Below are positions 37,998-56,638 of a DNA stretch of 64,000 nt, in pieces. Made by a program: the position numbers and the translations under genes. The notes under the pieces were generated by a model. The model made no database searches. It was not told where the DNA came from and was given only the letters and a program-made list of their open reading frames with translations. The stretch's first letter is position 1; every line of letters starts with the position of its first letter. Where the stretch lies: contig JANNVQ010000040.1 in the NCBI GenBank assembly GCA_031414535.1, positions 32,001 through 96,000 of the forward strand. Direction: 5' to 3'. Source of the stretch: Gemmatimonas sp. (GTDB lineage: Bacteria; Gemmatimonadota; Gemmatimonadetes; Gemmatimonadales; Gemmatimonadaceae).

Positions 37998-38816
37998 CTA
38001 GTGACGGTCCGCGCTCATACGCGCGCGCCCTCCGAGCGCGCGGTCGGCATCGTCAATCGCGCGCCGCAGAATCCACGCCTTCTCCGTGGTATCGTGTTCG
38101 GCGTCGGCGTCACGTAGACCACGCTCCAAGGCGCGCCGCGTGGAAGTCGAGACGTTATCGCCGAGATTCAAGACGGCGCGAATCGCCACTTCGTAAATCG
38201 CGGCGGTGGCTGCTGGCTCGTCATCGTTGAAGAACGGCACTCCGCGGCGGACGGCCAGCGTCAGGAGCTCGCGTGCTTCGGTGTTCCGCTGGGCGCTGGC
38301 GCCGTCACGCATCCCGTCAGTGGGCGGCAGCAGCACTTCGTCAATCACGTGGATCACGCCGTTGGTGGCTCCGACGTCCGCGCGCACGACGGTGGCATTG
38401 TTGATCATCAGTGAACTGCCCTGGGCACGAATGCGGATGTTGCGGCCCTCGACGGTCTTCGCGGATGTGAGCTCGCGGGCGGCGGCGGCGTTTACCCGCC
38501 CCGGTACCACATGGTACAGGAGGATGGCGCGAAGTTGCGCGCGATTCTCAGGCTTGAGGAGATTCTCTACCGTACCGGCGGGTAGCCGGCGGAAGGCTTC
38601 GTCGGTGGGGGCGAATACCGTGAACGGTCCATTGCCACGCAAGGTCTCCGTGAGTCCTGCGGCGTCGAGGGCCGTGACCAGCGTGGCGAACTGGCCGGCG
38701 CTGCGTGCAACCGTGGGGATGTCACCGCGCTGGGCGGCGGCGGACGAAGTGACGAGCGAGGTGGCGAAGGCCAACAGCGCTACCGGAACAAAAAGACTGC
38801 GGCGCAAACGGAACAC
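37998..38816 (-). CDS. Secreted fasciclin (FAS1) domain protein with C-terminal helical extension
   Basis: TVFAPTDEAF, LLYHVV, NGVIHVID; AGGAG-N6-GTG start. Confidence 0.9.
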   Translation of the reverse strand: MFRLRRSLFVPVALLAFATSLVTSSAAAQRGDIPTVARSAGQFATLVTALDAAGLTETLRGNGPFTVFAPTDEAFRRLPAGTVENLLKPENRAQLRAILLYHVVPGRVNAAAARELTSAKTVEGRNIRIRAQGSSLMINNATVVRADVGATNGVIHVIDEVLLPPTDGMRDGASAQRNTEARELLTLAVRRGVPFFNDDEPAATAAIYEVAIRAVLNLGDNVSTSTRRALERGLRDADAEHDTTEKAWILRRAIDDADRALGGRARMSADRH

Positions 38817-38866
38817 GTGTGACTCCTGTCTCATGGGAAAGTGACCAGCTGGGTGTCGAGGACTGG

Positions 38867-38922
38867 TTCGCTTCCGGAGTGCTGTTTGGATGCACTGCAT
38901 CCAAATCCGCGCGTCTGGCGAA
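38867..38922. promoter_or_regulatory. Back-to-back SigK-type ECF promoters
   Basis: Minus CATCC-N17-CGAA and plus CATCC-N16-CGAA; palindrome 38885-38905. Confidence 0.75.
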
Positions 38923-39006
38923 CTATTGGGGAGCGGCTTCGCGAACCCGCGAGCCCACCTTCCCGTTCGACTTCCCGTGCCTTCTGCCTTCCGCCTTCCG
39001 TTTCAG

Positions 39007-39588
39007 ATGCCGATTGCGTTAGCAACGTCCCCTGATGACGCGCCTCTGGTGCTTGCCCGTATTGCGGCGGGTGACGAGCGCGCGGTCCGCGACTGCGTTG
39101 CCGCATTCGGGCCAATGCTCTTGGCCTTGGCGCGTCGTTGGTCGCCGAACCCTGCCGACGCCGAGGATGCGGTGCAGGAGATTTTCTTCGATCTCTGGCG
39201 CAACGCCGTGCGCTACGACCCCTCCAAAGCCAGCGAGCGCGGCTTCGTCGCCATGATTGCTCGGCGTCGCCTCATTGACCGGCACCGACGGCAACTGCGC
39301 ATGGTTCGCACAGAACCAGTACCTGATGGCTTCGACCTTCCAGATCCCGAGACGGATGAAGGCGACCGCGTGGGCGAAGCGATGGCGGCACGCGAGGTGC
39401 TCGCCCAGCTCACGCCGCAACAACGTCGGTTTATTGAGCGACACTTGCTGGACGGTAAGACTCACGAGGAGATTGCCGCTGAGACATCGGTGCCATTGGG
39501 CACAGTGAAATCGCACATTCGTCGCGGACTCTTGAAGGCACGCGCGCTACTAGGCGGGCGTGCCGCCGCGGCAGAGGAGGACGTATGA
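39007..39588 (+). CDS. ECF sigma factor, SigK-like
   Basis: DAEDAVQEIF..LW, IARRRLIDR, PLGTVKSHIRRGL. Confidence 0.92.
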   Translation: MPIALATSPDDAPLVLARIAAGDERAVRDCVAAFGPMLLALARRWSPNPADAEDAVQEIFFDLWRNAVRYDPSKASERGFVAMIARRRLIDRHRRQLRMVRTEPVPDGFDLPDPETDEGDRVGEAMAAREVLAQLTPQQRRFIERHLLDGKTHEEIAAETSVPLGTVKSHIRRGLLKARALLGGRAAAAEEDV

Positions 39589-40328
39589 CCACACCCGAAT
39601 CTTCATCGCAGTCTTTGGAATCCACGGCCGCTGAACTCGCGTCTGCTCTCGTGCAGCCCAGCGAGGCAGACGTTGCACTCGGCAGTGACTTGGCGGCGCG
39701 CATCATTGCCGATGGCGAAGCCGTGCTCCGTGCGCAGCGGATTGCCGACGCGCCTGGCTCTGGTGACGCCCAAAGTGGGTCGGTGATTGCCGTAGCTTCG
39801 GGTGCTGCGCCGGCGCGCGTACAGGCCTCGCGTTGGCGTGAGCGGAGTGCGTGGATGCTCGCGGTCGCCGCGAGCATTGCGTGGCTCTTGCTGCCGAGCC
39901 CGATTGCACCCATCCGTGACGAGGGGGCTCCCGCTGCACTGGTGGCACTGCGAGACTCACTCGCCGGCGATTCCGCGAGTGTGCAAGTGGCGTGGGCGCC
40001 GTCTACAGATCCAGCGGGGCGCAACGCTAGCGGCGATGTCGTGTGGCACGCCGCGTCGCAGCGTGGCGTGATGCGCTTCCGAGGGCTGGCGCCGAATGAC
40101 AAGCGCATCGCGCAGTATCAGCTGTGGATTGTGGATGCGAATCGTGATGCACGATATCCCGTGGATGGCGGCGTGTTTGATGTGAACGAGAGCGGAGAAG
40201 TGCTCGTCGCAATTGACGCGCGGCTCCCGGTTGGTCGCGCGACACTCTTCGCCGTCACGCTCGAAGCACCAGGCGGTGTGGTGGTGTCAACACGCGAACG
40301 ATTGGTGCTGGCGGCGCCGGCGGACTGA
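39585..40328 (+). CDS. Anti-sigma factor, RskA-like
   Basis: Single TM; YQLW, GGVF, FAVTLEAPGG. Confidence 0.88.
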   Translation: MTTPESSSQSLESTAAELASALVQPSEADVALGSDLAARIIADGEAVLRAQRIADAPGSGDAQSGSVIAVASGAAPARVQASRWRERSAWMLAVAASIAWLLLPSPIAPIRDEGAPAALVALRDSLAGDSASVQVAWAPSTDPAGRNASGDVVWHAASQRGVMRFRGLAPNDKRIAQYQLWIVDANRDARYPVDGGVFDVNESGEVLVAIDARLPVGRATLFAVTLEAPGGVVVSTRERLVLAAPAD

Positions 40329-40464: not shown

Positions 40465-40977
40465 ATGTTCAAGTTGCGCACGCTGCCCCTCGCAGCGCTT
40501 TTGCTTTCCGGCATCGTCGTCGCGTGCGATGATGACGATCCGATTGCTCCGGTTCCGGAGCAGTTTGTTGCCGCACTCAGCGGTGCGAACGAAGTCCCGG
40601 CCGTCACCAGTGCGGCCAGCGGTTCGGCGACGTTCACGGCGGTTGGCGACACAGCGCTCACCTACACGATCACGGCGAACAACATCACCGGCGTGACGAT
40701 GGGACATATTCATGCTGCCGCCGCAGGGGTGAATGGCGGTGTGGTTGCATGGTTGCTTCCGCCGAACGGGACGGCAGCTCAGCCGGCAAGCGGCGCGCTC
40801 AACGGTCAGATTGCGACCGGCCGCATTAACGCGTCGTGGATCCGCGGCCTCTCTGGGGCGGCTCCCATCACGCTGGACTCGCTCAAGAGCCTGATGCGCC
40901 TTGGTCGTGTGTACGTGAACATTCACACCAGCACGAACGGCGGCGGTGAAATCCGCGGTCAGATCGTGCCGAACTGA
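40465..40977 (+). CDS. CHRD domain lipoprotein
   Basis: Lipobox VVAC; LSGANEVP, GHIH, YVNIHT..GEIRGQ. Confidence 0.9.
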   Translation: MFKLRTLPLAALLLSGIVVACDDDDPIAPVPEQFVAALSGANEVPAVTSAASGSATFTAVGDTALTYTITANNITGVTMGHIHAAAAGVNGGVVAWLLPPNGTAAQPASGALNGQIATGRINASWIRGLSGAAPITLDSLKSLMRLGRVYVNIHTSTNGGGEIRGQIVPN

Positions 40978-40982
40978 TTGGG

Positions 40983-41017
40983 TGTCGCGGGTGCGGCAGA
41001 TTGCCGAACCCGCGACA
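40983..41017 (+). terminator. Hairpin after CHRD gene
   Basis: TGTCGCGGGT-GCGGCA-GAT-TGCCGA-ACCCGCGACA. Confidence 0.6.
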
Positions 41018-41261
41018 TGTTGGTGTGATTCGCAACTTTTTGGACGGCGCGGTTCCGCGCGCGGAGGAGTCCACTCGTGGTCGCTTGGGTGGGCGGCGTG
41101 ATCGACGGACTCGCGGGCCACGCGGGCGGGTGGCGGCCTGCGCTCTACCCCGCCCCCCGCGGACGCAGCAAAACCTGTCAGGCGTTGGAACGACGCGGTG
41201 CCCCGGCTAGCTTTAGAGGTTCCTAGCTTTGCTGCCCGCTCCTCCGCCCTAACTTGCTGCC

Positions 41262-43061
41262 GTGACCCAGCTGTCCCTGATCCGCAACTTCTGCATCGTC
41301 GCCCACATCGACCACGGGAAGTCCACCCTGGCCGACCGCCTTATCGAGGCGACGGGCATGCTCCAGAAGCGCGAAATGAAGGCCCAGGTGATGGACACCC
41401 TGGACCTCGAGCGCGAGCGCGGCATCACGATCAAACTCAATGCCGTCCGGATGTCATACGATGCCAAGGACGGCGTCACCTACGAGCTGAACCTGATTGA
41501 CACGCCCGGGCACGTGGACTTCACCTACGAAGTCTCGCGCTCCTTGGCTGCCTGCGAAGGCGCAATTCTCGTCGTGGACGCCTCACAGGGCATTCAGGCG
41601 CAGACCCTGTCCAATCTGTTCCTCGCGATGGACGCGGGCCTCGAGATTATCCCGATCCTCAACAAGATTGACCTCCCAGGCGCCGAGCCCGAGAAGCGTC
41701 GTCAGGAAGTGGTGGATCTCATTGGCTGCGCGCCCGAGGACATTCTCCTCGTGAGCGCCAAGGAAGGTTTGGGCATCCCCGAGTTGCTCGAGAAGGTCGT
41801 AGAGAAGGTGCCGCCGCCAAAGGGCGACGTGAACGGCCAGCTTCGTGCGCTCATTTACGATTCGTATTACGACAAGTATCGCGGGGCCATTCCAAGTGTG
41901 CGCGTCGTGGACGGCACGCTGAAGAAGGGGATGAAAATCGCGTTTGGCGCCTCCGAGTCTGTGTACGAAGTGCTTGAGGTTGGCTACAACCAACTGCGCC
42001 AGGTGCCCGCTAAGCAGCTCACGTCCGGCGAAGTGGGCTACGTCGTGGCCAGCGTGAAGTCGGTGCGCGAGACGCGCGCGGGCGACACCATCTTTGACGC
42101 CGAGAACAAGGCCACGCAGGCGCTTCCGGGTTATCAGGCGGTGCGTTCGTTTGTGTTTGCCGGCATCTTCCCCACCGACACGCAGCAGTACGAAGACCTG
42201 CGCGACGCGCTGGAGCGTTTGCAGCTCAACGACGCGTCGCTCAACTATCTCCCCGAGACGTCCACGGCGCTGGGCTTCGGTTTCCGCTGCGGCTTCCTCG
42301 GCCTTCTCCATATGGAGATTGTGAAGGAGCGCCTCGAGCGTGAGTTCGATCTCGACCTCGTCACGACGGTCCCGAGCGTGGAGTACCACGTGAAGAAGAC
42401 TGACGGCGAGGATGTGGTCGTCGAGAATCCCGCGCTGATGCCGCCGGCTGGCAACATCGACTACATCGAAGAGCCCTACGTAAAGGCTCGCATCATGGTC
42501 CCCACCGAGTACATCGGACCCATCATGACGCTGGGCACGGAGCGCCGCGGCGAGTACAAGGGGATGAACTACATCGATACCGCGCGAGTGGAAATCGATT
42601 GGGAGTTCCCGCTTGGCGAAATCATTCTCGACTTCTTCGACAAGCTCAAGTCCATCTCACGCGGCTATGCCTCGCTGGACTACGAACTCATTGGTTATCG
42701 CAAGAGCGACCTGCAGCGCCTCGACATGCTCATCAACGGCGACCCGATTGACGCGTTCTCCGTCATCGTGCACGTGGACAAGGCGTATGAATGGGGCCGC
42801 AAGGTGGCCGACAAGCTCAAGGATCTAATTCCGCGCCAGCTCTTCGAAGTCGCGATTCAGGCCGCGCTGGGCCAGAAGGTGATTGCCCGCTCTACCGTGA
42901 AGGCGCTGCGCAAGGATGTGCTCGCCAAGTGCTACGGCGGCGATATCTCGCGCAAGCGCAAGCTTCTCGAGAAGCAGAAGGAAGGCAAAAAGCGTATGAA
43001 GCAGGTGGGATCAGTGGAGATCCCACAGGAAGCCTTCCTCGCGGTGCTACAGGTCGACTAA
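41262..43061 (+). CDS. lepA: Elongation factor 4
   Basis: [38 protein letters not shown]. Confidence 0.97.
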
Positions 43062-43081
43062 ACCCACCCCGTCGAGCGCGG

Positions 43082-44260
43082 CTAGTTGCCGCCGCGCTCG
43101 AAGGTCAGTTGGTACGGTCCCACGGTGCCCGCACCGAGCGAGCTAACGCGAATCACGTAGGTCCCCGCGCGCGTCACGCGCACCTCTAACATCGAGTCGA
43201 GATCGCCGCCGCTGTCGTCATCCGTGGCGATCTCATTGAACGCGCCGCCGAGCGTCGTGCCCCAGCGCAGGTAGGAGTCGAACTCCCCTGAGCGCATGGT
43301 GATGCGGAAGGAATCGCCGGCCGCGGCCGTGACCACGTACTCGTGGAAGTAGCCGCCACCATCCAGCTCGGGGTCAGAGGTTGTGAGTTCACCACTCACC
43401 GTCTGGCCAACCTCGATGGGACGCTGGATGACCGCCACCACTGGGGCATCCGACACGGACAGCGAGTAGTTGCCGCGTCCGTCCTCGCCAAGCGAACGCG
43501 CGATGATCTTGTACTCGCCGTTCAATTCCAACACGACGCGCGCGTTGGTGCCGCCTGCGCCATCGTCATCGGTGGCCACCTGCTCCTCGCCGTCAGCATT
43601 CACCTTGTAGACGTGCAGGTAGGCGTCGAAGCTCTCCGCCGTCATCTGGATGCGGACGCGCTGTCCCTTCCCGCGGATGGTATAGACATCGTGGGGCTGA
43701 TCTCCATCGTCCTCGCGGAGGGGAGAGTCGTCCGTCAGTTCGCCCTCAACAGATTGTCCGATCGCGATGGAGCGGGCGGCGGGCGGTGGCGCGGGCTGCT
43801 GCTCGACAATTTGGACCGTAAACGCCCCTGCCCCGTCCTCTGAGAGTGCCTGGGCAACAAGGAAGTAGCTCCCGTTGGCCGGTGGCTTGAAGCGCAGGCG
43901 AGAATTGCTGCCCTCGCCTCCATCGTCGTCCGACGCCAGTTCCTCGGTGAGCACACCCACCTGCCGTGCCACCCAGACGTAGGAGTCGAGGTCGGGAGCT
44001 TCCATGGTGATGATGTAGCGCTTGTCGGCTCGCGCCTCAAAGCGGTACACCCGGAAGGCACCGCGTCCGCCCATTTTGGTCTCGGATGCGCGCAACTCAT
44101 CATTCACAGGCGTAGCAAAACGAATCAGGCGCGGCGCTCCAGCCGCTTGCGGTGCCGGGCGCGCAGGCGGACGGCCACCCTGCGCCTCTACGGCCTCCGT
44201 CGCGGTGGCCAAGCCGACCAGCGCCGCCGCAGCGGCGATTCCATTCCGAGTTAGACGCAT
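43082..44260 (-). CDS. Secreted protein with three PPC (pre-peptidase C-terminal)-like repeats
   Basis: Signal peptide; three D[SA]Y...DDD[GS][GA] units. Confidence 0.8.
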   Translation of the reverse strand: MRLTRNGIAAAAALVGLATATEAVEAQGGRPPARPAPQAAGAPRLIRFATPVNDELRASETKMGGRGAFRVYRFEARADKRYIITMEAPDLDSYVWVARQVGVLTEELASDDDGGEGSNSRLRFKPPANGSYFLVAQALSEDGAGAFTVQIVEQQPAPPPAARSIAIGQSVEGELTDDSPLREDDGDQPHDVYTIRGKGQRVRIQMTAESFDAYLHVYKVNADGEEQVATDDDGAGGTNARVVLELNGEYKIIARSLGEDGRGNYSLSVSDAPVVAVIQRPIEVGQTVSGELTTSDPELDGGGYFHEYVVTAAAGDSFRITMRSGEFDSYLRWGTTLGGAFNEIATDDDSGGDLDSMLEVRVTRAGTYVIRVSSLGAGTVGPYQLTFERGGN

Positions 44261-44391
44261 GCACACCCCCAGTTGAGGCCGTCAGGATGGGACGGCAGTG
44301 ACCAAATATGGAACCGCAACCGACCAAGGGCGAGGGGACAGCCTGCGCTCCTCTCATTGTCGCTCACAATCGGCGCCGGTAGCTTTCCCCC

Positions 44392-44961
44392 ATGTCTGAA
44401 GCCGCCATTCGTACGTTGGTCGCGGAAAATCCTGGCCAAGCCACCGTTGAGGAGTACACCCTGGTGTATCGCGTGCTCGCAGCACGCGTGCCCTGCCGTC
44501 TCCTCATCTTCGGCGTAGGCCGTGATACCCCGCTCTGGCTCGATATCAACAAGGGCGGTACGACCGTCTTCCTTGAGGACGTGAAGAAGTGGGCGGCGTT
44601 TGCCCGCGAAGCCTCACCGGGCAGCGTCGTGCACGACGTGGACTACGGGCTCGTCCGTCGCTTTATGTGGCCCATCATGCGCCGCATGCCCGAGCGCTTG
44701 ATGATGACGGACCTTAGCCCGGAAGTGCGCAACACCAAGTGGGACGTCATTCTCGTAGACGCCCCGCGCGGCACACGGTGGAGCGCGCCTGGCCGCATGA
44801 AGAGCGTCTACACGGCCAAGGTGCTCGGCGAGGAGAGCGGCGCCGACGTCTTCGTGCACGATTGCCATCGCGCAGTGGAACGCGAGAGCGCCGAGCAGTT
44901 TCTGCGCGCCGACCGCTTTGTGGCGCAGGCCGGCAGCATGCGGCACTACCGCCTGCGCTGA
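44392..44961 (+). CDS. DUF579/Polysacc_synt_4 (GXM/IRX15-like) putative polysaccharide O-methyltransferase
   Basis: LLIFGVG.D, GGTTVFLED, WDVILVDAP.G, PGRM, DVFVHD..R.VE. Confidence 0.8.
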   Translation: MSEAAIRTLVAENPGQATVEEYTLVYRVLAARVPCRLLIFGVGRDTPLWLDINKGGTTVFLEDVKKWAAFAREASPGSVVHDVDYGLVRRFMWPIMRRMPERLMMTDLSPEVRNTKWDVILVDAPRGTRWSAPGRMKSVYTAKVLGEESGADVFVHDCHRAVERESAEQFLRADRFVAQAGSMRHYRLR

Positions 44962-44978
44962 GTCGCGGGTCCTCGCCG

Positions 44979-46160
44979 ATGCGCATCGGGATAGACATGC
45001 GCGTGCCTGCGCCCAAGGGACCCGGGCAGCAGCGCTATCTCTGGCGGCTCGGCGCGTGGCTCGCCGCACAGGGACACGAGCTGCACTTCATGACGGTCCT
45101 GAGGCAAAACGGCGACATCATCGCCCCGCCCGGGGCGAGCTACCACGACTACTCCGCGCTGTCGGCATCGCGGCTACGCGTAGCGGTGAGCGATCTCTCG
45201 CTCGACGCGCTGCTGCTCAACCCCGAGCGATCGCGCCCGTTTCGCGGCTTGCCGGCCAATGTGCTACGCTCCGCGTACGGCACGGAACAGTACATCCAAA
45301 AGCTGCGCTCGTTCCGGCATCCGTTGGAATGGACGGCGCGCAAAGCCCTGCGTGGCGCGCCGTGGACGCTCGCCGAGATGCACTTCGAGCGGCAGTTCTA
45401 CGAAGGAACACAGCCGGCACCGGACGTGATTGCGCAGTCGCGCTACATGCGCGAGCAGATTCTTGGCAGCTATCGCATCCCCGAGTCGCAGGTGCACGTC
45501 GTGTTGAATGCCGTGGACGTGCAGGAATACACACCGGCGCGGCGACTCGCGCTGCGCCAGGAGATGCGGGCACGCTGGAACATCCCCGCGGAAGCACTGT
45601 GCCTGCTGTTTCTCGGGCACAACTTTCGCTTAAAAGGCCTGTGGCAAATTCTCCAAGTGCTACCAACGCTCGGGAAGCTCGGGCGCCCCGTGCATTTGCT
45701 CGTCGCCGGCAAGGGTACCGGGGAGCCGCAACGTCGCAAGGCGCAGCGCCTAGTGCGCTCCCACGGACTTGAGCGGCAGGTGACATTCGCGGGTGACGTG
45801 CGGCCATCGCTCAGCGCCCACGCGGCGGCCGATGCGCTGCTGCACCTCTCTTGGCATGACTCCTTTGGATTTGTGTCGCTTGAGGCGATGGCCACCGGCT
45901 TGCCAGTCATCACGACGCGCTACGTTGGCGCGGCGGAGCTTATTCGCGATGGGGAGTCCGGCCTCATTGTTGATCCAGCGGAGGACCGCCAGATTGCCGA
46001 CGCCATCCGACGCCTCAGCGACGATAGCTGGCGCGAAAAGGTCGGCATTGCCGCCGCCGCGGAAGGCGCGAAGCACGATGAGCCGCAGAACTTCGAGCAA
46101 GTGCACGCGGTGATTCGCACGGCCGTCGGCCGCGGCGCGGGTCCCATTCGCGCACGATAG
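44979..46160 (+). CDS. Glycosyltransferase family 4 (WaaG/RfaG-like)
   Basis: FLGHNFRLKG, DSFGFVSLEAMATGLPV. Confidence 0.9.
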   Translation: MRIGIDMRVPAPKGPGQQRYLWRLGAWLAAQGHELHFMTVLRQNGDIIAPPGASYHDYSALSASRLRVAVSDLSLDALLLNPERSRPFRGLPANVLRSAYGTEQYIQKLRSFRHPLEWTARKALRGAPWTLAEMHFERQFYEGTQPAPDVIAQSRYMREQILGSYRIPESQVHVVLNAVDVQEYTPARRLALRQEMRARWNIPAEALCLLFLGHNFRLKGLWQILQVLPTLGKLGRPVHLLVAGKGTGEPQRRKAQRLVRSHGLERQVTFAGDVRPSLSAHAAADALLHLSWHDSFGFVSLEAMATGLPVITTRYVGAAELIRDGESGLIVDPAEDRQIADAIRRLSDDSWREKVGIAAAAEGAKHDEPQNFEQVHAVIRTAVGRGAGPIRAR

Positions 46161-46169
46161 CTTTCGGTC

Positions 46170-47171
46170 ATGACAGCCACAGCTGAGAGCAAGCGCTACA
46201 TCATTGGCGTGGATTTGGGCGGCACCAACATTGTGATTGGCGCCGTCAGCCTTGATGGGAGCCAGCAGTTTGGGATGCACAGCATTCCCACGCGTGCGGA
46301 CTTGGGCTCAGACGCGGTTGTCGAACGCATTGCCCAATTGGTGGAGCGCGTGGCGGCGGAAACGATGTCCGCCACCGGGGCATCGCGCGCGCAGATCCTC
46401 GGCGTGGGCATCGGATCGCCGGGCCCGCTGGACCGCGAGACTGGCGTGGTGATCCTCACCCCCAATCTCGGCTGGACCAACTTCCCGCTGCGCGACCGCA
46501 TCTGTTCCGCCGTGCAGCTGCCTGCCACGCTCGACAACGACGCCAACTGTGCCACGCTCGGCGAGTGGTGGCTGGGCGCCGCGCGAGGCGCGCAGCATGT
46601 GGTGGGCCTGACGATTGGCACGGGTATCGGCGGCGGACTCATTCTCAACGGGCGCTTGTTTCACGGCGTGAGCGACGTGGCCGGCGAAGTTGGGCACACG
46701 ACCATTGACGCCAACGGGCGCCGCTGCGGATGCGGCAATTACGGATGCCTCGAGGCGTACGCATCGGGCCCCGCCATCGCGGAGCGCGCACGCGAGGCAC
46801 TGGCCGGTGGCGAACCCTCGGCGATGCCAGCGCTCGTGAGCGGAGATCTGTCGCGGTTGAGCGCCGCCATCGTCTACGATGCAGCCAAACAAGGCGATCG
46901 ACTCGCGCAGGAGGTGGTGCGCGAGACCGCGCGCATCCTCGGTATCGGCATTGCCAATCTGCTCAACGTCTTCAACCCCGAAGTCGTGGTGCTCGCCGGC
47001 GGCGTGACGCAGGCTGGGGACCAGCTCTTCGAACCACTGCGAGCGGAGGTGCGGCGGCGCGCCTTCAAGCCCGCGGTGGACGCCTGTCGCATCGTGCCCG
47101 GTGCGCTGCAGGGTAATGCGGGAGTGATTGGCGCCGCGGCCACGTTCGCGCAGCAGCAGGGGCTGATGTGA
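46170..47171 (+). CDS. ROK family sugar kinase (glucokinase-like)
   Basis: GVDLGGT, NDAN, GTGIGGG, EVGH..CGCG..GCLE. Confidence 0.93.
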   Translation: MTATAESKRYIIGVDLGGTNIVIGAVSLDGSQQFGMHSIPTRADLGSDAVVERIAQLVERVAAETMSATGASRAQILGVGIGSPGPLDRETGVVILTPNLGWTNFPLRDRICSAVQLPATLDNDANCATLGEWWLGAARGAQHVVGLTIGTGIGGGLILNGRLFHGVSDVAGEVGHTTIDANGRRCGCGNYGCLEAYASGPAIAERAREALAGGEPSAMPALVSGDLSRLSAAIVYDAAKQGDRLAQEVVRETARILGIGIANLLNVFNPEVVVLAGGVTQAGDQLFEPLRAEVRRRAFKPAVDACRIVPGALQGNAGVIGAAATFAQQQGLM

Positions 47172-48136
47172 GCGCTGGCGCAGGAGAGGGAACGGGTGCC
47201 CGCCCCCGACGCAAACGGCTCGGCGTGATTGGGACCTTCGTCTGGGACGTGATTCATGGTCGGGACATTCATTCTGCGGCGGTGGAGGAATGGGGTGGCA
47301 TCACCTACGCGCTCTCCGCCTGCGATGCAGCCTTGAGCGCAAGCTGGGAACTCGTGCCGCTTGTGAAGGTGGGCTCCGACCTCGCCCCGCAGGCGCGCGA
47401 CTTCCTGCGCTCGCTACGAACCATCGCGCTGGATGCGCAGCCGATTGTGGTGCCACAACGGAACAATCGGGTGGAGCTGCGTTACTTCTCGGACGAGCGC
47501 CGCAGCGAAGTGTTGAGCGGAGGTGTGCCGGGCTGGAGTTGGGCCGGCCTCCAGCCCCTGCTCCGCGATGTGGACGCGCTGTACATCAACCTCATCAGTG
47601 GCTTTGAGCTCGATTTAGAAACGGCGCAGCTTATCCGCCAGCACTTCAAGGGCCCCATCTACTGCGATTTGCACTCGCTCACGCTGGCCTTGGAGCCCAA
47701 TGGCCTTCGGACCTGGCGGCAGATTCCAGAAGTGGCGGCGTGGTGCGCCTGTTTTGACGTGCTACAGGTGAATGAGGACGAAGTGGCCATGATGGCGGCC
47801 GACCCATTGGCCCTGGCGACCATGGCCTTGGGCTCCGGCGTGAAGACGCTGTTCGTGACCCTTGGGAGGCGCGGAGTCGTCTATTTCGAGGAGGCCGGCC
47901 CGGGCAGGCCGCTCCGGACGGCGCTGCTGCCCGCGTCGGTTGCGAGAGTTGACGGCCCGGGTGATCCCACGGGCTGCGGAGATGTGTGGGGCGCAACGTA
48001 TTTCTCTCGTGCCGTCGCGGGTGATACATTGCAGGTTGCCGTGCGAGCGGCATGTGACGCTGCAGCGCGCAACGTTGAACATCGGGGGGCCACCGGCCTC
48101 GCCCATCACCTTCGCGGAGAGCTACACCCGCTGTGA
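47168..48136 (+). CDS. PfkB family carbohydrate kinase
   Basis: QVNEDE, VTLGRRG, DPTGCGDVWG. Confidence 0.85.
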   Translation: MSAGAGEGTGARPRRKRLGVIGTFVWDVIHGRDIHSAAVEEWGGITYALSACDAALSASWELVPLVKVGSDLAPQARDFLRSLRTIALDAQPIVVPQRNNRVELRYFSDERRSEVLSGGVPGWSWAGLQPLLRDVDALYINLISGFELDLETAQLIRQHFKGPIYCDLHSLTLALEPNGLRTWRQIPEVAAWCACFDVLQVNEDEVAMMAADPLALATMALGSGVKTLFVTLGRRGVVYFEEAGPGRPLRTALLPASVARVDGPGDPTGCGDVWGATYFSRAVAGDTLQVAVRAACDAAARNVEHRGATGLAHHLRGELHPL

Positions 48137-49026
48137 CTGCCGTCATCTCCGTCCCCGCGTTCCTCGATGAGCAATCGTTCGAGCAAGTGCTCGAGCAGGT
48201 GGCGCCGCTCGCCCCCGACGCGAAGATGCTTGTGGACGCACGGCACACGCGCTTCGCCACGCCCTTTGGGCTAACCGCCCTCCTCTGCTTGGCACAGTCT
48301 CGAGCGGAGAAGCCCGACTTTACGCCGCCCTCTGACGATGATGTGAAGTCCTATTGGGCGCGTTCGGCGTTCTTCCGCTACGCCGAGGAGCTGTTCACGC
48401 TGCGTGGCCCCGTGCCTCGCGCCCGCGCCTCGCAGGATTCGGACGTGTTGCTCGAAGTCACGCCGATCGCCAAGAGCGAAGATGTGCACGAGGTCGTGGA
48501 ACGGGTGCGCGAGCGCGCCACGCACATCCTCACGCACAAGCTGCGCTTGGAGACCCGCGCCACGATGGGCTTCGCGATGTCGCTCTCGGAAGCCTGCCAG
48601 AACATCGTGGAGCACGCAGGCCGCGGTGGCTGGGTGGGCGTGCAGGTCTACAATTGGGCCAAGCGCCGAGTCGGGCGTCAGGTGGTGGTCATCTCAGTCG
48701 CCGATGCGGGCCAAGGCTTCCGCCGCTCGCTGGACACCGCCCGAGTGCGCGCCATCGCGGGTGACCGCTGGAGCGACGGCGAGGCGCTCGAGGCCGCCGT
48801 GACGCAGGGCTACAGTCGTCACACCGAGCCAGGCCGCGGACAAGGCCTCAAGGGTATCAAGGGCTACGTGCATCGCCACGATGGTCGCCTAAGCATCCGC
48901 TCGGGCTCGGCGCGCATGACCATTGTGCCACCCTGGGATGACTCGCCCGCCCGCGAGGACGGACTCCCGATGTTCATCGGGTCTCAGTTGCAGATCATCA
49001 TCCCCGAACGAGCGGAGGGCGCGTGA
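48133..49026 (+). CDS. STAS-like plus GHKL (HATPase_c) protein, anti-sigma/Ser-kinase-like
   Basis: N-box EACQNIVEHA, G1 DAGQG, G2 GRGQGL; no H-box; N-terminal VDARHTRFATPFG. Confidence 0.8.
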   Translation: MTAVISVPAFLDEQSFEQVLEQVAPLAPDAKMLVDARHTRFATPFGLTALLCLAQSRAEKPDFTPPSDDDVKSYWARSAFFRYAEELFTLRGPVPRARASQDSDVLLEVTPIAKSEDVHEVVERVRERATHILTHKLRLETRATMGFAMSLSEACQNIVEHAGRGGWVGVQVYNWAKRRVGRQVVVISVADAGQGFRRSLDTARVRAIAGDRWSDGEALEAAVTQGYSRHTEPGRGQGLKGIKGYVHRHDGRLSIRSGSARMTIVPPWDDSPAREDGLPMFIGSQLQIIIPERAEGA

Positions 49027-49574
49027 CACACATTGACGTCCGCTCCGCCCTGAACCAGTCGCTGCCGGGCAACTATTCCGACCTCATCACCCGAAACACG
49101 GGCGTGCTCGTGCGCTCGGTGATTGAGGAGCGGCTTGCCGGGCTCGCCGACGGCACGGTGGCCTTTCTCGACTTCTCGCACATTCGGCTGCTCGACCGCT
49201 CCTGCGCGGATGAGATTCTCTCCAAGCTCATGCTGCCCATGACGACGGACCACCCGCCACGCGATGGATACGTTGTGCTGCACGGTCTCGATGAATTCCA
49301 CCTTGAGATTATCGAGGCGGTGCTGGAGACCCATCAGTTGGCCCTCGTGGTGCAGCTGCCGAGTCTCGAAGCCCGGCTTGTGGGTTCCGTCACCGAGCAG
49401 GAGCGTCGCTGTTGGGAGCAGGTGATGCGTCAGGGTGGAGCGATTGCCGACACATTGGCCATCGAGATTGGGATGCCCTGCGAGTCCTGCCAAGAGATGC
49501 TCGAAGGCCTCGCCAAGCGACGTTTGCTGCGCTGCGTGGCCAATCGGTTTCTGCCGCTTGGGCAAGCCGCCTGA
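49023..49574 (+). CDS. STAS-like (DUF4325-like) plus winged-HTH protein
   Basis: FLDFSHIRLLDRSCADE; C-terminal HTH-like pattern; GTGA overlap. Confidence 0.7.
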   Translation: MTHIDVRSALNQSLPGNYSDLITRNTGVLVRSVIEERLAGLADGTVAFLDFSHIRLLDRSCADEILSKLMLPMTTDHPPRDGYVVLHGLDEFHLEIIEAVLETHQLALVVQLPSLEARLVGSVTEQERRCWEQVMRQGGAIADTLAIEIGMPCESCQEMLEGLAKRRLLRCVANRFLPLGQAA

Positions 49575-49876
49575 TGCGTGGGTTTCAGCCTTTACAGGTT
49601 GTCGGCTTCATCGCCACGAAAAAGAGCGATGAAGAGCGTGGTCCCTTGGTGCGGATTAAGCCCGAGGACGCGCGGAAGCGTCTGATTGCGGATGGCGAAC
49701 TCGTGTGGGTGTACGGGCCGCGACGCCACGAACTCGCACCCGTGGTGTACGATGACACGCTGCCGCGCGGCGGCGTTGTGGTACGGGATCTCGGCGGCCT
49801 CACCGTCACCGAAATCGTGAAGCTCGTGAAAATGGATGTGGACCACCGCCCCGTCCTGACCAAGTCCCTGACTTAA
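49574..49876 (+). CDS. Stand-alone molybdopterin dinucleotide-binding-like (double-psi barrel) domain
   Basis: RIKPEDARKRLIADGELVWV...PRGGV; TGATG overlap. Confidence 0.75.
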   Translation: MRGFQPLQVVGFIATKKSDEERGPLVRIKPEDARKRLIADGELVWVYGPRRHELAPVVYDDTLPRGGVVVRDLGGLTVTEIVKLVKMDVDHRPVLTKSLT

Positions 49877-49881
49877 GCGCG

Positions 49882-51042
49882 ATGCCAAAGCCGAAGAAGC
49901 CAAGTCTCGCCACGCTCGCCATTCACGGCGCCCGTGACGCCCACGCCCACGCCCACGGCGACGCCGTCGTCGAGCCACTCGTCCAGAGCGTGAACCATCG
50001 GCAGCAGCCGGGCACGGCCGATGGCCTGCTCTACACGCGCTACGGCAACACCCCGAACGCGGCGCGCGTGCAAAAGCGCATCGCGCTGCTCGAAGGTGCC
50101 GAGTCGGCGCTGCTGCTCTCGAGCGGCATGGGGGCCACCGCCTGCGCGATGCTCGCCCTGCTCCGCCCCGGCGACCACCTGCTGTCCTCGCAGTACATCT
50201 ACGGTGGCACCTACCGCCTCTTCATGGAAGAGTTCGTGCGGATGGGGATTGACGTGCAACTCGTCGATCCTTGGGAGCCGCGCGTCTGGCGCAAGAACAT
50301 CAGGAAAGAGACTCGCGCCATCTTCCTCGAGACGCCGGTGAATCCGACATGCCGCGTGCTCGATTTGCGCCCCATCTCTTTCCTCACGCGCAACTCCGGC
50401 ATCGCGCTCGTGGTCGATTCGACCTTCGCGAGTCCCATCAACTTCCGACCGCTGGAGCACGGCGCCGACGTCGTCATTCACTCGGCCACCAAGTACCTAA
50501 ACGGCCATCACGACGTCCTCATGGGCGTGGTCTGCGGCAGCGAACCGTACATTGAAGAAGTGCTGCAGAAGGAAATGCTCTGGGGTCAGACACCGGACCC
50601 CTTTGCGTGCTGGTTGCTGGAGCGCGGCCTGAAGACACTCGACGTGCGCGTGAAGCGCGCCAACGAGACGGCGCAGAAAATCGCGCAGTGGGCCGAGAAG
50701 CGGAAGGAAGTGGTGCAGGTGCACTACCCTGGCCTCAAGTCGCATCCCGATCACGACGTCGCCAAGGACATGCTCGATGGCTACGGCGGTATGCTCGCGC
50801 TGGAACTGAAAGGCGGCGGCAAGGCCGCGGACCGCTTCCTCAAAAAGCTCGAGGTCATCACGCACGCGCCCTCGCTGGGCGGCGTGGATTCCCTCGTCTG
50901 CGAGCCTCGCTACACCTCACACGCCAAGATGACGTCGGCGCAGCGGGCTGCCATCGGCATCCCTGATGGCTTCCTGCGCTTCAGCATCGGGCTCGAGTCT
51001 GCCGATGATCTCATCGCGGATCTCGAGCAGGCGCTCAAATAA
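49882..51042 (+). CDS. PLP-dependent trans-sulfuration enzyme (cystathionine gamma-synthase/Met gamma-lyase family)
   Basis: YTRYGN.P, SSGM, ETPVNP, SATKYLNGH, SLGG. Confidence 0.92.
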   Translation: MPKPKKPSLATLAIHGARDAHAHAHGDAVVEPLVQSVNHRQQPGTADGLLYTRYGNTPNAARVQKRIALLEGAESALLLSSGMGATACAMLALLRPGDHLLSSQYIYGGTYRLFMEEFVRMGIDVQLVDPWEPRVWRKNIRKETRAIFLETPVNPTCRVLDLRPISFLTRNSGIALVVDSTFASPINFRPLEHGADVVIHSATKYLNGHHDVLMGVVCGSEPYIEEVLQKEMLWGQTPDPFACWLLERGLKTLDVRVKRANETAQKIAQWAEKRKEVVQVHYPGLKSHPDHDVAKDMLDGYGGMLALELKGGGKAADRFLKKLEVITHAPSLGGVDSLVCEPRYTSHAKMTSAQRAAIGIPDGFLRFSIGLESADDLIADLEQALK

Positions 51043-51045
51043 GAG

Positions 51046-51728
<683 letters not shown>

Positions 51729-51732
<4 letters not shown>

Positions 51733-52577
51733 AGCTTGCCTTCCGTGAAGCCATTCGTGCATTCAATCGCGCGCCGATGCTGAGCATGCTCTCGGTGACG
51801 ACCATCGCGTTCTCGCTGTTCGCCTTCGGATTGTTTGGGCTCGTGGCGCTCAACCTGCGCAACGCCCTCCAGCAGGTTGAGGACCGCGTGGAGGTCCGAG
51901 GATTCATCTCAGCCGGCACGTCCCCCGAAGCCGTGAGCGCGGCCGTGGACGATGTGGCCCTGTTCCCGGAAGTAGGCAGCGTGAAGCTGGTCACAGAGGC
52001 GCAAGCGCTCGAGCGTGCGCGGCGTGAGCTCCGCGAGTTCACCGATGTGTTTGAAGAGGGCTTGTTGCCAGCGAGCATCGAAGTCCGCATGAAGCCGGGC
52101 CTCCGCGACCCGGAGACGGTGCGCACCGTGGCCAAACGTTTGGAGAACTACGACTTCATTGATGACGTGCGCTTTGGCGAGGAGTGGGTGGAGAATCTCC
52201 ACCGTCTCCGCAACATCGCCACCGGCGCGGGTTTGGCACTGGGCGTCACGTTCGCGCTCGTGGCCATCATCATCATTGGCTCCACCATCCGCATGGCCGT
52301 GCTCGCGCGCAGCCGCGAGATTGCCATTATGCGGCTCGTTGGCGCGACGGACGGCTTCATTCGACTTCCCTTCCTTATTGAAGGGGCCATCAAGGGCACG
52401 CTGGGCGGTCTGCTGGCGCTCGTGCTCACCTGGATCGCCGTCGTCGTATCAGGACGATGGGTATTGCAGGTGCAGTTCTTCGAGACCTCGCTCATGTTCG
52501 CGGGGATTCTTGCGGGCGCAGGCATCGGCCTGCTCGGCAGCGCGCTCTCCGTCGGGCGCCACTTGAAGAAGGTTTGA
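51729..52577 (+). CDS. ftsX: Cell division permease FtsX
   Basis: REIAIMRLVGAT..FIRLPFLIEG. Confidence 0.92.
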
Positions 52578-52580
52578 CGG

Positions 52581-53849
52581 ATGACGGATGACGGACGATG
52601 GAAGTCGAGCATTTGGAATATCCGGCGTGCGGCCGCGCTCGTGGTCGTGTCCTTGTGGCTTCCGTCCTCCGTCCCGCAGTCGGTGAGCGCGCAACAGCGC
52701 CCCGCCCTACCGCCCTCCGCCGCGCAGTCCGCCGAGAACATTCGGCGCGAGCAACTGGAACTTGAGCGCTTGCGGCAGGAGCGCCGCCAGCTTGAAGCGC
52801 GGATGCGGGACTATCAGCGCAGCGCGCAAAACGTCTCGCAGGAGCGCCAGAACCTTGAACGTCAGGCGCAGGCCACCGCGCGCGTGGTCCGGTCGCTCGA
52901 CAACCAACTGGGCACGCTCTACCTGGAAGTGGACAACGTGAACGGCTCGCTTGTCCGCACCCAAGACGAGTTGATGATCAAGCGCGCCATCCTCACGCAT
53001 CGCGTGCAGGAGATTTACAAGCGTGGTCCCTTGTACTCGCTGGAGGCCTTGCTCTCGGCTGAGAGCTTCGGCTCGCTGGTGGCGCGCTATAAGTATCTCC
53101 ATCTCGTCGCCCAGCGCGACCGCACGCTGCTGGCGCGAGTGGAGCAACTCAACGCACAGATCAACTCGCAGCGCTCACTCCTCGTGCGCCTGCAGAGTGA
53201 TGTGGAGAGCAACCGCCGTGAGAAGGCGGAAGAAGAGGCGCGTCTGCGCCGTCTTGAATTACAGCGCGGTCGGACGCTCGCGCAGATCGAAGCTCAGCAA
53301 CGCACGGCCCAAGCGCGCCTCCAACAAATTGCGCGCGACGAACAGCGCCTGACCAACGTGATCACGGCACTCGAGGAATCGCGCCGCCGTGCCGACGCCG
53401 CCGCTGCGCGCACGGGTGCCGCCCCACGGGCCAGCAGCATCACCACCGCCGACCTCGGCCGCCTTGACTGGCCCGTGGAGGGCAATGTGGTGTACCGCTA
53501 CGGTCGCGTGGTGAACCCCAACAACACGTCCATTACGTGGAACGGAATGGGCATCGGTGCGGCAGCCGGAACGCCGGTTAAGGTCATTGCGGATGGTGAA
53601 GTCGTGTTCGCCGAGCAGGCGGGCACCTACGGCCTGACGATGATTGTGCAACATGGCGGTGGCGCGTACACGATGTACGCCTCACTGCAAGAGATTCACG
53701 CGCGCCGCGGTTCTCGCGTGACCAAGGGGCAGACGATCGGGACCGTAGGACAAGCCGATCCCGATCTTTCGCCGAGACTGCACTTTGAGATTCGCCCCAA
53801 CGGCGGGCGGGCAGTGGATCCGTTAGAGTGGCTGCGCCGCCAGCGTTAG
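52581..53849 (+). CDS. envC: Murein hydrolase activator EnvC (coiled coil plus degenerate M23); start uncertain
   Basis: Coiled coil; WPVEG, WNG replacing HxxxD, LHFEIR. Confidence 0.88.
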   Translation: MTDDGRWKSSIWNIRRAAALVVVSLWLPSSVPQSVSAQQRPALPPSAAQSAENIRREQLELERLRQERRQLEARMRDYQRSAQNVSQERQNLERQAQATARVVRSLDNQLGTLYLEVDNVNGSLVRTQDELMIKRAILTHRVQEIYKRGPLYSLEALLSAESFGSLVARYKYLHLVAQRDRTLLARVEQLNAQINSQRSLLVRLQSDVESNRREKAEEEARLRRLELQRGRTLAQIEAQQRTAQARLQQIARDEQRLTNVITALEESRRRADAAAARTGAAPRASSITTADLGRLDWPVEGNVVYRYGRVVNPNNTSITWNGMGIGAAAGTPVKVIADGEVVFAEQAGTYGLTMIVQHGGGAYTMYASLQEIHARRGSRVTKGQTIGTVGQADPDLSPRLHFEIRPNGGRAVDPLEWLRRQR

Positions 53850-54304
53850 CGCAGGGCGCTTCCAGCCGCGACCGTAATGTTGACCGGGAAGGGACCGAAG
53901 TCCTCGTGGTTCTCCTCGATGTGCAAAAGCGAGAATGACACTGAGCGCACGCCCGCCGTGGTGCCGGTCAGGGTGCCGGCAAACGGGCCGGTGCGCGCGA
54001 AGGTGATGCCAGAACCCGGTGTGACGTTCACCTGAAAGTCAGCCTCGCGCTCCACGAGCGCGTTGGCCATCGCGGCGTCGAGGAACTGCACGCTCACAGC
54101 CGTCGCCACGCCGGAGTTAATGGTAATGCTACCCGTCACCGCTCCGGTTGAGTTCACGGTGATCTGCTGGGCTCCAGCCGTGATTCGCATGAAGTCCACT
54201 TCCACCTCTTGCACGCCGTCGTCCTTACAACCGGCCACACCGAGGGACAGTGCGACAAGCGCGAGTGCGGCAAAGCGGCGGGTAGAGCTGACAGTCTTCA
54301 ACAT
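53846..54304 (-). CDS. Lipoprotein co-transcribed with TonB receptor, possible metal binder
   Basis: Lipobox VAGC; HIEENHEDF. Confidence 0.75.
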   Translation of the reverse strand: MLKTVSSTRRFAALALVALSLGVAGCKDDGVQEVEVDFMRITAGAQQITVNSTGAVTGSITINSGVATAVSVQFLDAAMANALVEREADFQVNVTPGSGITFARTGPFAGTLTGTTAGVRSVSFSLLHIEENHEDFGPFPVNITVAAGSALR

Positions 54305-54367
54305 CGTACAGGATTCTCCTCGTGGAAGTAGTGTGTGCGCGGCCTCTGCCGCGCGGGTGGTGAACAG

Positions 54368-56638
54368 CTAGAATTGCACCCGGTAGAGCAGGACGACGTT
54401 GCGCCCTGCCTCGGGGATGATCTCCTTGGTCCGTGAGAGGTGCTCACGGATCTCGGAGTTGAGTAGGTTGTCCACGCGTAGCGTGAAGCTGTGCAGTCGC
54501 TGGCCAAGCACGAGGCGCCAGCCGAGGTGTGCATCGAGTGTGGCGTACCCCGCTGTCTCCGTCTCGAAATCCCCAATCAGACGTTGCGCCGCCGACATGC
54601 GAATCCCGCCGCCGTAGGACCACACAGGCGTCTCATGGCGGAGACCCACGCGCCCGTTGAGCGGTGGCATAAGGGGCAAGAAGCGCGACTCAATGCGGTT
54701 CGGCTCGCCATTCAAGCCAGGAATGGTGTCGCGATTCCCGCTGATGCTGCCACGCACGTAGCTTACCGTGCTCTCGAGGACGAGATGGTCGACGAGCGTC
54801 ACCTCCATCTCGCCCTCTGCACCAATGAGGACCGCGTCCTCATTGGTGAACTGAAACTTCCAGCGCTCGCCAACGCGTCCAAGCTCGCCAGTGTTGCGTG
54901 GGAACAGATAACCGTTCATTTGATTCGCAAAGGCGGCAACTTCAGCCCGCACACGGCTCCGCTGCACTCGCACGAAGACATCCGCACCCAATCCAGTCTC
55001 CTGCGAGTTGCGTGGATTGCCAACGTCGTACGAGTAGGCCGCGAGGTGCGGGCCATCGGAGTACAGCTCGTTGAAGTCCGGCGTACGGAAGGAGCGGCTG
55101 ACGCTCGCGCCCAGCCGCAGGCCATTTCGCGCCGTGTAGATGGTACCCAGCGATGCGCTCAGTGAACCGAAAGTTCGCGCCACGGTCGGCAAGGTGTCAT
55201 TGCCCACCACGATGTTGCGCGGATCAAGTGGGATAAATCGCGCGAAGTCGTAGCGAAGCCCCGCCTGCGCACGCCAAGGTCCCGCCCCAAACTCCTCCAC
55301 CATGAATGCGGCCGCCGACCAATCCGCCGTCGGCGTGGCGCGGATGGCGCCCGAAGGATTGATGTCGCGGTACTGCGCCCGAAAGCCAAGCACCCCTCCT
55401 TCGGCGGGCCCCGCGTGCGCGTGCCGCGCCACAACCTCGAGCACGGACATCAACTGGTCGAAGCTCGTCGCCACGTTTCCGCTGGCCGTCACCTCGTCGT
55501 GGTTGTAGGCCGTAAACGTCGCCGTGGCCTTCACGCTTTCAAATCGCCCACTCGCCGGATGCCAGTCGGTCTCGCTACGAACCGTGTGTCGTTGCATGCG
55601 GATATTCACGCCGCCGGGATGCGCACCCACGAAGCCGCCAGGAATCCCATACTCGTTGCCGTAATAACGATACGAGAGTCCGCTGTATCCCCAATCGCCA
55701 ACCTTGGAGACGCCGAGCGCCGCGCCGGCGGATGTAACTCCGGTGTTGCCGAGACGCCCCGCGGGCGTGCGGAGGTCTCCGGCCAAGCGCCCGCTTCCTT
55801 CAGCGCGCACGGAGAAACCCAGTACCGGCAGCTCCACGTATCCACCAAGCGTGCCACCATCATTCACTGAGCTCGCCTGCGCACTCATCTCTCCGTGAAC
55901 ATGTTGCGTGGCCACGGCCGGCACTTCTTGACGAATGACATTGACCACGCCGCCAAGCGCACTGGATCCGTAGAGCAATGACATCGGCCCACGAACGACT
56001 TCTACCTTCTGTGCCGTGAGCGCATCCACCGCCACCGCGTGGTCCATGGACGTACTGGAGAGATCTCCCGGCCGTTGGCCATCTTCGAGCACGATGACGC
56101 GGTCGCCACTTAAGCCTCGAATGACGGGACGCGCCGTGGCCGGACCCATCGACGCCATCGAGACGCCAGGCGTTCCGCGGATGGTGGAGCCTAAGGTGCC
56201 ATCCAGTGCACGGTCGAGCTTGGCATCGGACAACACATTGGTCGCCGTGATGGCGTCCACTGCATTGCGCTCCGACACCTGACCCGTGACTACCGTGGCG
56301 CTCAGCTGCAGCGGCGAAGGACGCATAGCGACCCGCAACGAATCCATCCCCACGCGCACCACCAACTGCTGGGATTGAGACTGATACCCGATGCGTTGCA
56401 CGGTCAGCTGATAGGAACCCGGAAGCACGGCGCCAAGCGAGAAGGTGCCGTCCTCGTGCGCCCTCACCTCACGATGCAATTCAACGAGGCGCACTAACGC
56501 GGCAGGCAGGGGAGCGCCGGTGGACGCGTCATTCACGCGTCCCACGACAATCGCCGCTTGGGCCCTGAGGCTTGAGCTATTCACGGCGAGCACGACGGCA
56601 ACGAGCGCCGCACGCTTCGCGATGGCGGAACGAATCAT
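54368..56638 (-). CDS. TonB-dependent receptor (ZnuD-like metal uptake)
   Basis: N-terminal CarboxypepD_reg-like; RPVIRG, DHAV, EVVRGP plug; C-terminal Phe. Confidence 0.9.
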   Translation of the reverse strand: MIRSAIAKRAALVAVVLAVNSSSLRAQAAIVVGRVNDASTGAPLPAALVRLVELHREVRAHEDGTFSLGAVLPGSYQLTVQRIGYQSQSQQLVVRVGMDSLRVAMRPSPLQLSATVVTGQVSERNAVDAITATNVLSDAKLDRALDGTLGSTIRGTPGVSMASMGPATARPVIRGLSGDRVIVLEDGQRPGDLSSTSMDHAVAVDALTAQKVEVVRGPMSLLYGSSALGGVVNVIRQEVPAVATQHVHGEMSAQASSVNDGGTLGGYVELPVLGFSVRAEGSGRLAGDLRTPAGRLGNTGVTSAGAALGVSKVGDWGYSGLSYRYYGNEYGIPGGFVGAHPGGVNIRMQRHTVRSETDWHPASGRFESVKATATFTAYNHDEVTASGNVATSFDQLMSVLEVVARHAHAGPAEGGVLGFRAQYRDINPSGAIRATPTADWSAAAFMVEEFGAGPWRAQAGLRYDFARFIPLDPRNIVVGNDTLPTVARTFGSLSASLGTIYTARNGLRLGASVSRSFRTPDFNELYSDGPHLAAYSYDVGNPRNSQETGLGADVFVRVQRSRVRAEVAAFANQMNGYLFPRNTGELGRVGERWKFQFTNEDAVLIGAEGEMEVTLVDHLVLESTVSYVRGSISGNRDTIPGLNGEPNRIESRFLPLMPPLNGRVGLRHETPVWSYGGGIRMSAAQRLIGDFETETAGYATLDAHLGWRLVLGQRLHSFTLRVDNLLNSEIREHLSRTKEIIPEAGRNVVLLYRVQF

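Follow-up and report, generated by a model that had tools for sequence, protein, structure and literature searches.

A CapK/CapS-related pair of predicted serine kinase and substrate, fixed in the class Gemmatimonadetes, lacks the DNA-binding hallmarks of its relatives

The subject of this analysis is a pair of adjacent genes in a 64,000-nucleotide stretch of a Gemmatimonas sp. genome (GCA_031414535.1, contig JANNVQ010000040.1, positions 32,001 to 96,000; hereafter the window), one for a STAS-GHKL kinase and one for its putative substrate, a STAS domain fused to a winged helix-turn-helix (wHTH) domain. The pair is a fixed core feature of the class Gemmatimonadetes and is vertically inherited; judged by profile comparison it is a distant homologue of CapK/CapS, and in the class the DNA-binding motif, the wing and the operator have been lost together. 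Given the loss of the DNA-gripping residues and of the binding site, the pair likely signals through protein contacts. The reading that we favour, to which we give a rough probability of 0.55, is that single-stranded DNA (ssDNA) bound in the groove between the STAS and GHKL domains of a CapK/CapS-derived kinase is the trigger, that the GHKL domain then phosphorylates Ser60 of the substrate, and that the phosphorylation state of Ser60 would control a protein contact rather than an operator. As its output, the substrate would let go either of a partner protein (as VapS does, below) or, in the manner of a partner switch, of the kinase. The components of this reading differ in strength, by our own estimates, which are not mutually independent: phosphotransfer to Ser60, argued from CapK/CapS and SpoIIAB/SpoIIAA, is very probable, a substrate without sequence-specific DNA output is probable, and the ssDNA trigger, argued from conserved groove residues and from the DNA-repair context of a sister clade, is somewhat favoured. 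Two samples recur below. The 40 class loci were chosen by hand to span the eight Gemmatimonadetes families (f1–f8) and are a non-random sample; the sister clade is represented by the best 80 of 589 confirmed loci (L073–L152), collected with a profile of non-class homologues, many of them on short contigs and most from Nitrospirota, Nitrospinota, Brocadiae and Deltaproteobacteria.

The published systems with which the pair was compared are those of Chambers et al. (EMBO J 2026, PMC13373217). [quoted passage not shown] VapK is an HTH-less kinase that frees a PIN toxin from VapS, and its F54 is required for phage defence (structures: CapK/CapS, PDB 9Z71–9Z73; VapKSC, PDB 9Z7O). In those sections CapK/CapS appears solely as a mobile regulator of immune operons, and the strings ‘Gemmati’ and ‘Longimicrob’ are absent from the 12 of its 14 supplements searched. 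Our literature searches on this branch yielded only this paper and its preprint as relevant, and no paper on the sister-clade loci. As a STAS-GHKL kinase with a STAS-wHTH substrate is the CapK/CapS arrangement, the core pair belongs to a kind of system already known. An earlier reading of this DNA, made from the sequence alone and here called the sequence-only reading, had proposed a candidate new partner-switching system whose STAS-wHTH protein might act directly on DNA; that architecture is the one already published.

In the kinase, Pfam finds HATPase_c (3e-7) and, weakly, STAS_2 (0.043). Residues 103–295 of a predicted structure (pLDDT confidence 82) have SpoIIAB as best structural match (1l0o; Z 13.4, root mean square deviation 2.6, 135 aligned residues) and residues 1–93 match STAS proteins (Z 9.2, deviation 2.4, 88 aligned). 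Neither a DHp domain nor a His-box was found, SpoIIAB outranks histidine-kinase domains structurally and the partner is a STAS protein instead of a receiver, unlike in a His-Asp two-component system; the GHKL ATPase without His-box and with a STAS-like N-terminus that had been recognized in the sequence-only reading is upheld by these fold matches. There is no N-terminal HTH, as the STAS domain starts at residue 1 and the alignment with CapK begins at CapK residue 68 as against residue 10 here. The kinase profile aligns over its full length with Escherichia coli CapK (E 5.8e-5, probability 66%), placing N157 on N218 and F10 on W68, and a pair on a Nostoc plasmid bridges the two by profile (E 1.3e-16 and 1.1e-5). 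That plasmid locus (AP018224.1; L072:4004-8765) carries an HTH-less CapKS-like pair followed by a gene for an unknown protein and a Prok-E2_A/ThiF fusion. N157 is kept in 40/40 class loci and in 29/29 sister kinases, and the G-boxes are also invariant; where this kinase has H119, CapK has Asn and the Nostoc kinase Ser. PADLOC gave a single match (DrmA, 1.3e-9), confined to the GHKL part of the kinase.

The substrate, for which Pfam offers only a weak TrmB-type wHTH (0.026), was modelled with a pLDDT of 88; residues 1–117 match STAS domains (Z 8.9–9.6) and residues 121–183 match wHTH domains (Z 10.5). All 40 class loci retain the serine of the motif D-x-S-C-A-D-E, and so do 144 of the 145 rows aligned from distant representatives. 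Folds and conservation agree with the STAS domain with a D-x-S motif fused to a wHTH that the sequence-only reading had described, and with its SpoIIAB-like Ser kinase and STAS-wHTH partner, phosphotransfer between the two being predicted. Less durable was the CESC that it had picked out in the wHTH: CxxC occurs in 0/40 class loci and in 20/72 close homologues, and a metal or redox site was rejected as the residues are not conserved. Compared directly, the substrate profile (A1) matches CapS only weakly (E 0.02), so that homology to CapS rests on a chain through an intermediate profile, A4 (A1–A4, E 1.8e-34; A4–CapS, E 2e-11), which places S60 on CapS S54. Sequence searches of the PDB with A1 and A2 did not match CapS, though 9z71 was in that copy, and the CapS structures were not listed in the fold searches (Foldseek library to April 2026). 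Fused longer forms of the substrate were not found, which is weak evidence.

Set beside CapK/CapS, the class pair has the same gene order, kinase then STAS-wHTH protein, with the catalytic Asn and the acceptor Ser in register and no phosphatase at the locus. On the input side it would work alike, and it departs in the HTH, the DNA contacts, the operator and the immune context: the kinase lacks the N-terminal HTH and varies at the W68 position, the substrate lacks CapS N145 and the full wing, no palindromic operator was found between the two genes or downstream of the substrate, and the pair is fixed in a housekeeping operon rather than lying beside immune operons (none was found adjacent at the class loci examined). 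With VapK/VapS it shares an HTH-less kinase, the proposed output through protein contact and, as matched by eye, a basic loop and a putative aromatic counterpart of F54; unlike VapK/VapS, it has no PIN/VapC toxin among its annotated neighbours, and its substrate has a wHTH where VapS has a short C-terminal helix. SpoIIAB/SpoIIAA and RsbW/RsbV resemble it in the GHKL domain and in the D-x-S acceptor within a STAS domain, but in the class a STAS domain is fused to the kinase, a wHTH is carried by the substrate and neither sigma factor nor PP2C is linked. The absence of these two from the vicinity, as noted in the sequence-only reading, held for the 11 neighbouring genes scanned, and neither was found among the neighbours scanned at class loci. 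A separate canonical STAS (RsbV)–RsbW–PP2C cluster lies elsewhere in the genome (G000:C41:15698-18039).

The sister clade offers a comparison for the output side. Its substrates match by profile (the A4 comparison above), it carries an identical D-[YF]-S-C-A-D-E motif and the class kinases are nested within it; unlike the class, it retains the full wHTH, a promoter-overlapping operator and a cargo of restriction–modification (R-M) and repair genes. The kinase is visible in 34/80 sister loci, and a variable cassette often lies between it and the substrate. R-M genes are present in 35/80 and repair genes in 40/80 (RmuC 27, all Pfam-confirmed; DinG 12; MutS 10; AddA 7; OGG 5). Just past the kinase stop codon lies a palindromic element that overlaps a sigma-70-like −10 box, in 15–16 of 34 regions (shuffled ≤0.25). 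The order seen in examples from Nitrospirota, Nitrospinota and Brocadiae (among them L073:6925-7003, L106, L120, L128, L134, L140 and L145) is kinase, promoter with the palindromic operator over its −10 box, variable type II R-M cassette, capS-like gene and then rmuC, dinG, mutS or addAB, which looks like a small DNA-damage regulon and R-M hotspot. At five further loci (L074, L075, L077, L080 and L122, from metagenome-assembled genomes labelled Omnitrophota or Planctomycetia) the capS-like gene directly precedes a flgBC-fliEFGHIJ flagellar operon. Four of them also have kinase and operator, and no kinase was seen in L074; these loci are a possible second domestication.

Against this background the class substrates differ in the DNA-binding surface. 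A long wing and, within the recognition helix, the motif N-x-[AS]-[SG]-x-R are common to CapS, the Nostoc protein and the sister clade. Of the sister proteins 69/80 carry this motif, of the class proteins 1/40, and the wing, 14–16 residues in the sister clade and 15 in CapS, measures 9–11 residues in the class, a loss of 4–6. Mean net charge is −0.65 in the class versus +4.3 in the sister clade, and at a matched kinase identity of 60–70% the recognition helix is conserved with an identity of 0.38 versus 0.95. The full sister operator element was found in 45/80 sister loci versus 0/70 class loci, and nowhere in this genome. In 37/40 class loci the kinase gene adjoins the substrate gene directly, so that there is no room for a promoter between them, and six sets of class flanking regions gave no conserved palindrome (top matches mostly coding DNA) in the same scan that detected the sister operator. 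With recognition-helix motif, wing and operator lost, the idea that the STAS-wHTH protein acts directly on DNA becomes doubtful in this lineage. Z-DNA binding of the Z-alpha type was also considered, as Z-alpha domains rank high among matches for the short-winged wHTH, and was rejected: helix 3 has no conserved Asn or Tyr, the residues expected of Z-alpha.

Several observations weigh against a protein-level output triggered by ssDNA. On the output side, the wHTH retains its hydrophobic core in 39/40 class loci, so the fold survives, and in the GC-rich genomes of the class an AT-rich operator could have drifted beyond recognition, which weakens the negative result for the operator. After helix 3 one or two Arg residues are also retained, as are the Leu residues of the core. 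Together with the biochemistry of CapS (PMC13373217, in the sections used here), the surviving fold and these residues speak for an explanation in which the substrate is still a CapS-like repressor, bound at distant promoters to a site that has changed, is rich in GC or is of low specificity, and released by phosphorylation. We regard this as unlikely, although of the alternatives it survives best: the Asn, Ser and Arg of the recognition helix are gone, the wing is short and the charge neutral, the helix varies far more than that of the sister clade at matched kinase divergence, and the scan of flanking regions that recovered the sister operator recovered nothing comparable in the class.

On the input side, position 41 of the kinase is W or F in 40/40 class loci, W175 is aromatic in 38/39 and Arg is kept at 178/179 and 182, while the loop that carries K237/K239 in CapK and K180/K181 in VapK remains aromatic and basic. 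In the STAS domain of the kinase itself, the usual acceptor Ser position is taken by an invariant Pro, which is compatible with a sensor role. The points on the other side are that position 41 was equated with VapK F54 by eye, on the sequence given in the appendix of the paper (numbering offset by five), that the position of W68, which CapK requires for its activation by ssDNA, carries Phe in this genome but Ser in 19/40 class loci, and that ssDNA activation of VapK is itself, in the sections of PMC13373217 used here, only modelled and genetically supported. LexA is present in the genome, so the cell already owns an SOS regulator, and queries for the sister-clade repair and R-M genes match 0/40 class loci, where only nfo follows envC (13/40). 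Replacement of LexA by the pair was accordingly rejected; two further LexA-like matches lie on contigs C27 and C41. The endonuclease IV gene, nfo, is on the same strand after envC at L052:12789-13655 and 12 other loci.

An explanation that would keep the Ser switch and change its input has the kinase rewired to a signal other than DNA (RNA, a nucleotide or an envelope metabolite) and serving translation, lipopolysaccharide core synthesis or division. The pair does sit within a lepA–GT9–ROK–PfkB–lyase–ftsEX block, the kinase has class-specific invariant residues (W167, W213, P61 and R179) and the W68 position is not conserved. However, most invariant columns of the class kinases, aromatic 41 among them, are common to the repair-associated sister clade, and the neighbours are older than the pair; we hold this explanation to be rather improbable.

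The distribution of the pair was established by scanning 201 genomes of the phylum with the kinase profile. Matches were obtained in 182, one of which, from family f9, is weak and partial (1.1e-5); the kinase is present in 181/181 genomes of f1–f8 (173 with a single match) and in 0/18 genomes of other classes. The unpublished genome G156 is counted among the 181 and among 30 loci from the window's own family, and no claim hangs on it alone. One genome (G077) carries two complete kinase–substrate pairs, on C4 and C50. The substrate was found in 51/51 f1–f8 genomes tested versus 0/20 genomes of f9–f12, and at all 40 class loci the two genes share strand and locus. In trees made with FastTree only, the kinases of the class make up a single clade (support 0.999) within those of the sister clade, and they sort largely by family, as the lepA tree does. 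On the lepA tree f9 is the sister group of f1–f8 (support 0.948), and both f9 genomes have lepA–ROK–PfkB–lyase with PfkB abutting the lyase gene and kinase and substrate unmatched. On the stem of f1–f8, a DNA-damage repressor module of the Nitrospirota/Deltaproteobacteria type would probably have entered the site between pfkB and the lyase gene, lost its own promoter and been retained since. A single insertion on that stem is the simplest history; alternatively, the pair may have been gained earlier and then lost in f9.

The same empty site bears on the sugar kinases. At the 40 class loci the neighbours are ROK (39), PfkB (35), lepA (39), GT9 (17), the lyase (28), ftsEX-envC (22), nfo (13) and the barrel gene (4). 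The sequence-only reading had tied the switch to sugar, perhaps cell-wall sugar, recycling through ROK and PfkB, and the frequency of these two genes and their 4-bp overlaps do favour such a coupling; but lepA is linked as often, the ROK–PfkB block exists without the pair in f9 and in 4/5 f11/f12 loci, the PfkB query has no match in four genomes that retain the pair and PfkB is missing beside 5/40 pairs, and neither gene occurs in the best 80 of the 589 sister-clade substrate loci. From the f9 block with its empty site we conclude that ROK and PfkB are, on this comparative evidence, older neighbours and bystanders of the pair; sugar coupling, already largely refuted by that site, was rejected as very improbable. 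Least credible is a vestigial kinase–substrate loop without current output. The apparent loss of the DNA output and the lack of any partner among the findings speak for it, but 181/181 genomes, some of them only about 2 Mb in size, keep the pair, and across the class the phospho-motif shows 91% identity.

In the window the five open reading frames of the chain are present where the sequence-only reading had placed them, with successive overlaps of 4, 4, 4 and 1 bp (Table 1), and its identification of ROK, PfkB and a lone double-psi barrel was borne out by Pfam. The chain is longer than five genes: a GT4 gene lies upstream across a 9-nt gap, the Cys/Met lyase gene and ftsE follow with gaps of 5 and 3 nt, and the same-strand run extends from a methyltransferase gene and GT4 (from 44392) to ftsE-ftsX-envC (to 53849). 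The position upstream of ftsEX-envC, which had also been pointed out, is correct for this window, but those genes follow in only 22/40 class loci. A sigma-70 promoter scan of 40900–54400 gave 0 sites, and the named homologues are from Gemmatimonadota.

Table 1. Coordinates of the kinase–substrate pair, its key residues and the adjoining genes in the window
Feature	Position	Strand	Evidence
ROK sugar kinase, glucokinase-like; older host operon	46170..47171	+	Pfam ROK 2.4e-74
PfkB-family kinase; older host operon	47168..48136	+	Pfam PfkB 5.7e-11
CapK/VapK-like kinase: putative STAS sensor (aa 1–93) and SpoIIAB-like GHKL (aa 103–295)	48133..49026	+	Pfam, model, profiles
Kinase Phe41, position of VapK ssDNA-binding Phe54 (matched by eye)	48253..48255	+	Conservation
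Kinase catalytic Asn157 (N-box), equivalent to CapK N218	48601..48603	+	Alignment, conservation
CapS-like substrate: STAS (DUF4325-like) and wHTH with degenerate recognition helix and short wing	49023..49574	+	Model, profiles
Substrate Ser60, predicted phospho-acceptor, equivalent to CapS S54	49200..49202	+	Alignment, conservation
Stand-alone double-psi beta-barrel protein; family-specific add-on	49574..49876	+	Pfam PF01568 (Molydop_binding), 32 bits, cut-off 26.8
Cys/Met pyridoxal phosphate lyase; marks insertion site of pair	49882..51042	+	Adjoins PfkB in sister family f9

The barrel gene was found with this query in 10/10 genomes of the window's own family and in 0/45 others, and adjoins the pair in 30/30 own-family loci; being confined to one family it was rejected as a core part of the system. 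The genes that come after the pair are those of the barrel, the Cys/Met lyase, a penicillin amidase or YpdA, and the neighbourhood is a housekeeping one. Certain families have a gene for a YpdA-like disulfide reductase (4 loci) or for an Mrp/ApbC Fe-S carrier (10 loci) after the pair (examples of these followers are L039:6524-7531, L037:10138-11154 and L034:11902-12816), and these followers, the Cys/Met lyase and an invariant Cys61 make up a weak thiol theme. The methyltransferase gene at 44392–44961 is IRX15/GXM-like (the plant glucuronoxylan methyltransferase family); together with the GT4 gene that follows, it stands between lepA and ROK, a slot that GT9 takes in many relatives. Further upstream, at 37998–40328, a gene presumably for a fasciclin-like protein is divergent from genes that we take, from their translations only, to encode an extracytoplasmic function (ECF) sigma factor and an RskA-like anti-sigma factor.

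The sister clade serves as the ancestral comparison, with an intact operator–repressor circuit before R-M and DNA-repair genes, and the class pair would show how a regulator of defence can turn into a module of core signalling. It is possible, if doubtful, that a transcription switch for immunity and DNA repair was acquired a single time on the Gemmatimonadetes stem and turned into a class-wide post-translational ssDNA pathway, a DNA-damage checkpoint based on Ser phosphorylation that would work beside LexA and act on a protein partner instead of a promoter. In a class abundant in soil and freshwater, an invariant predicted phospho-serine kept after the apparent loss of the DNA output points to an undiscovered target.

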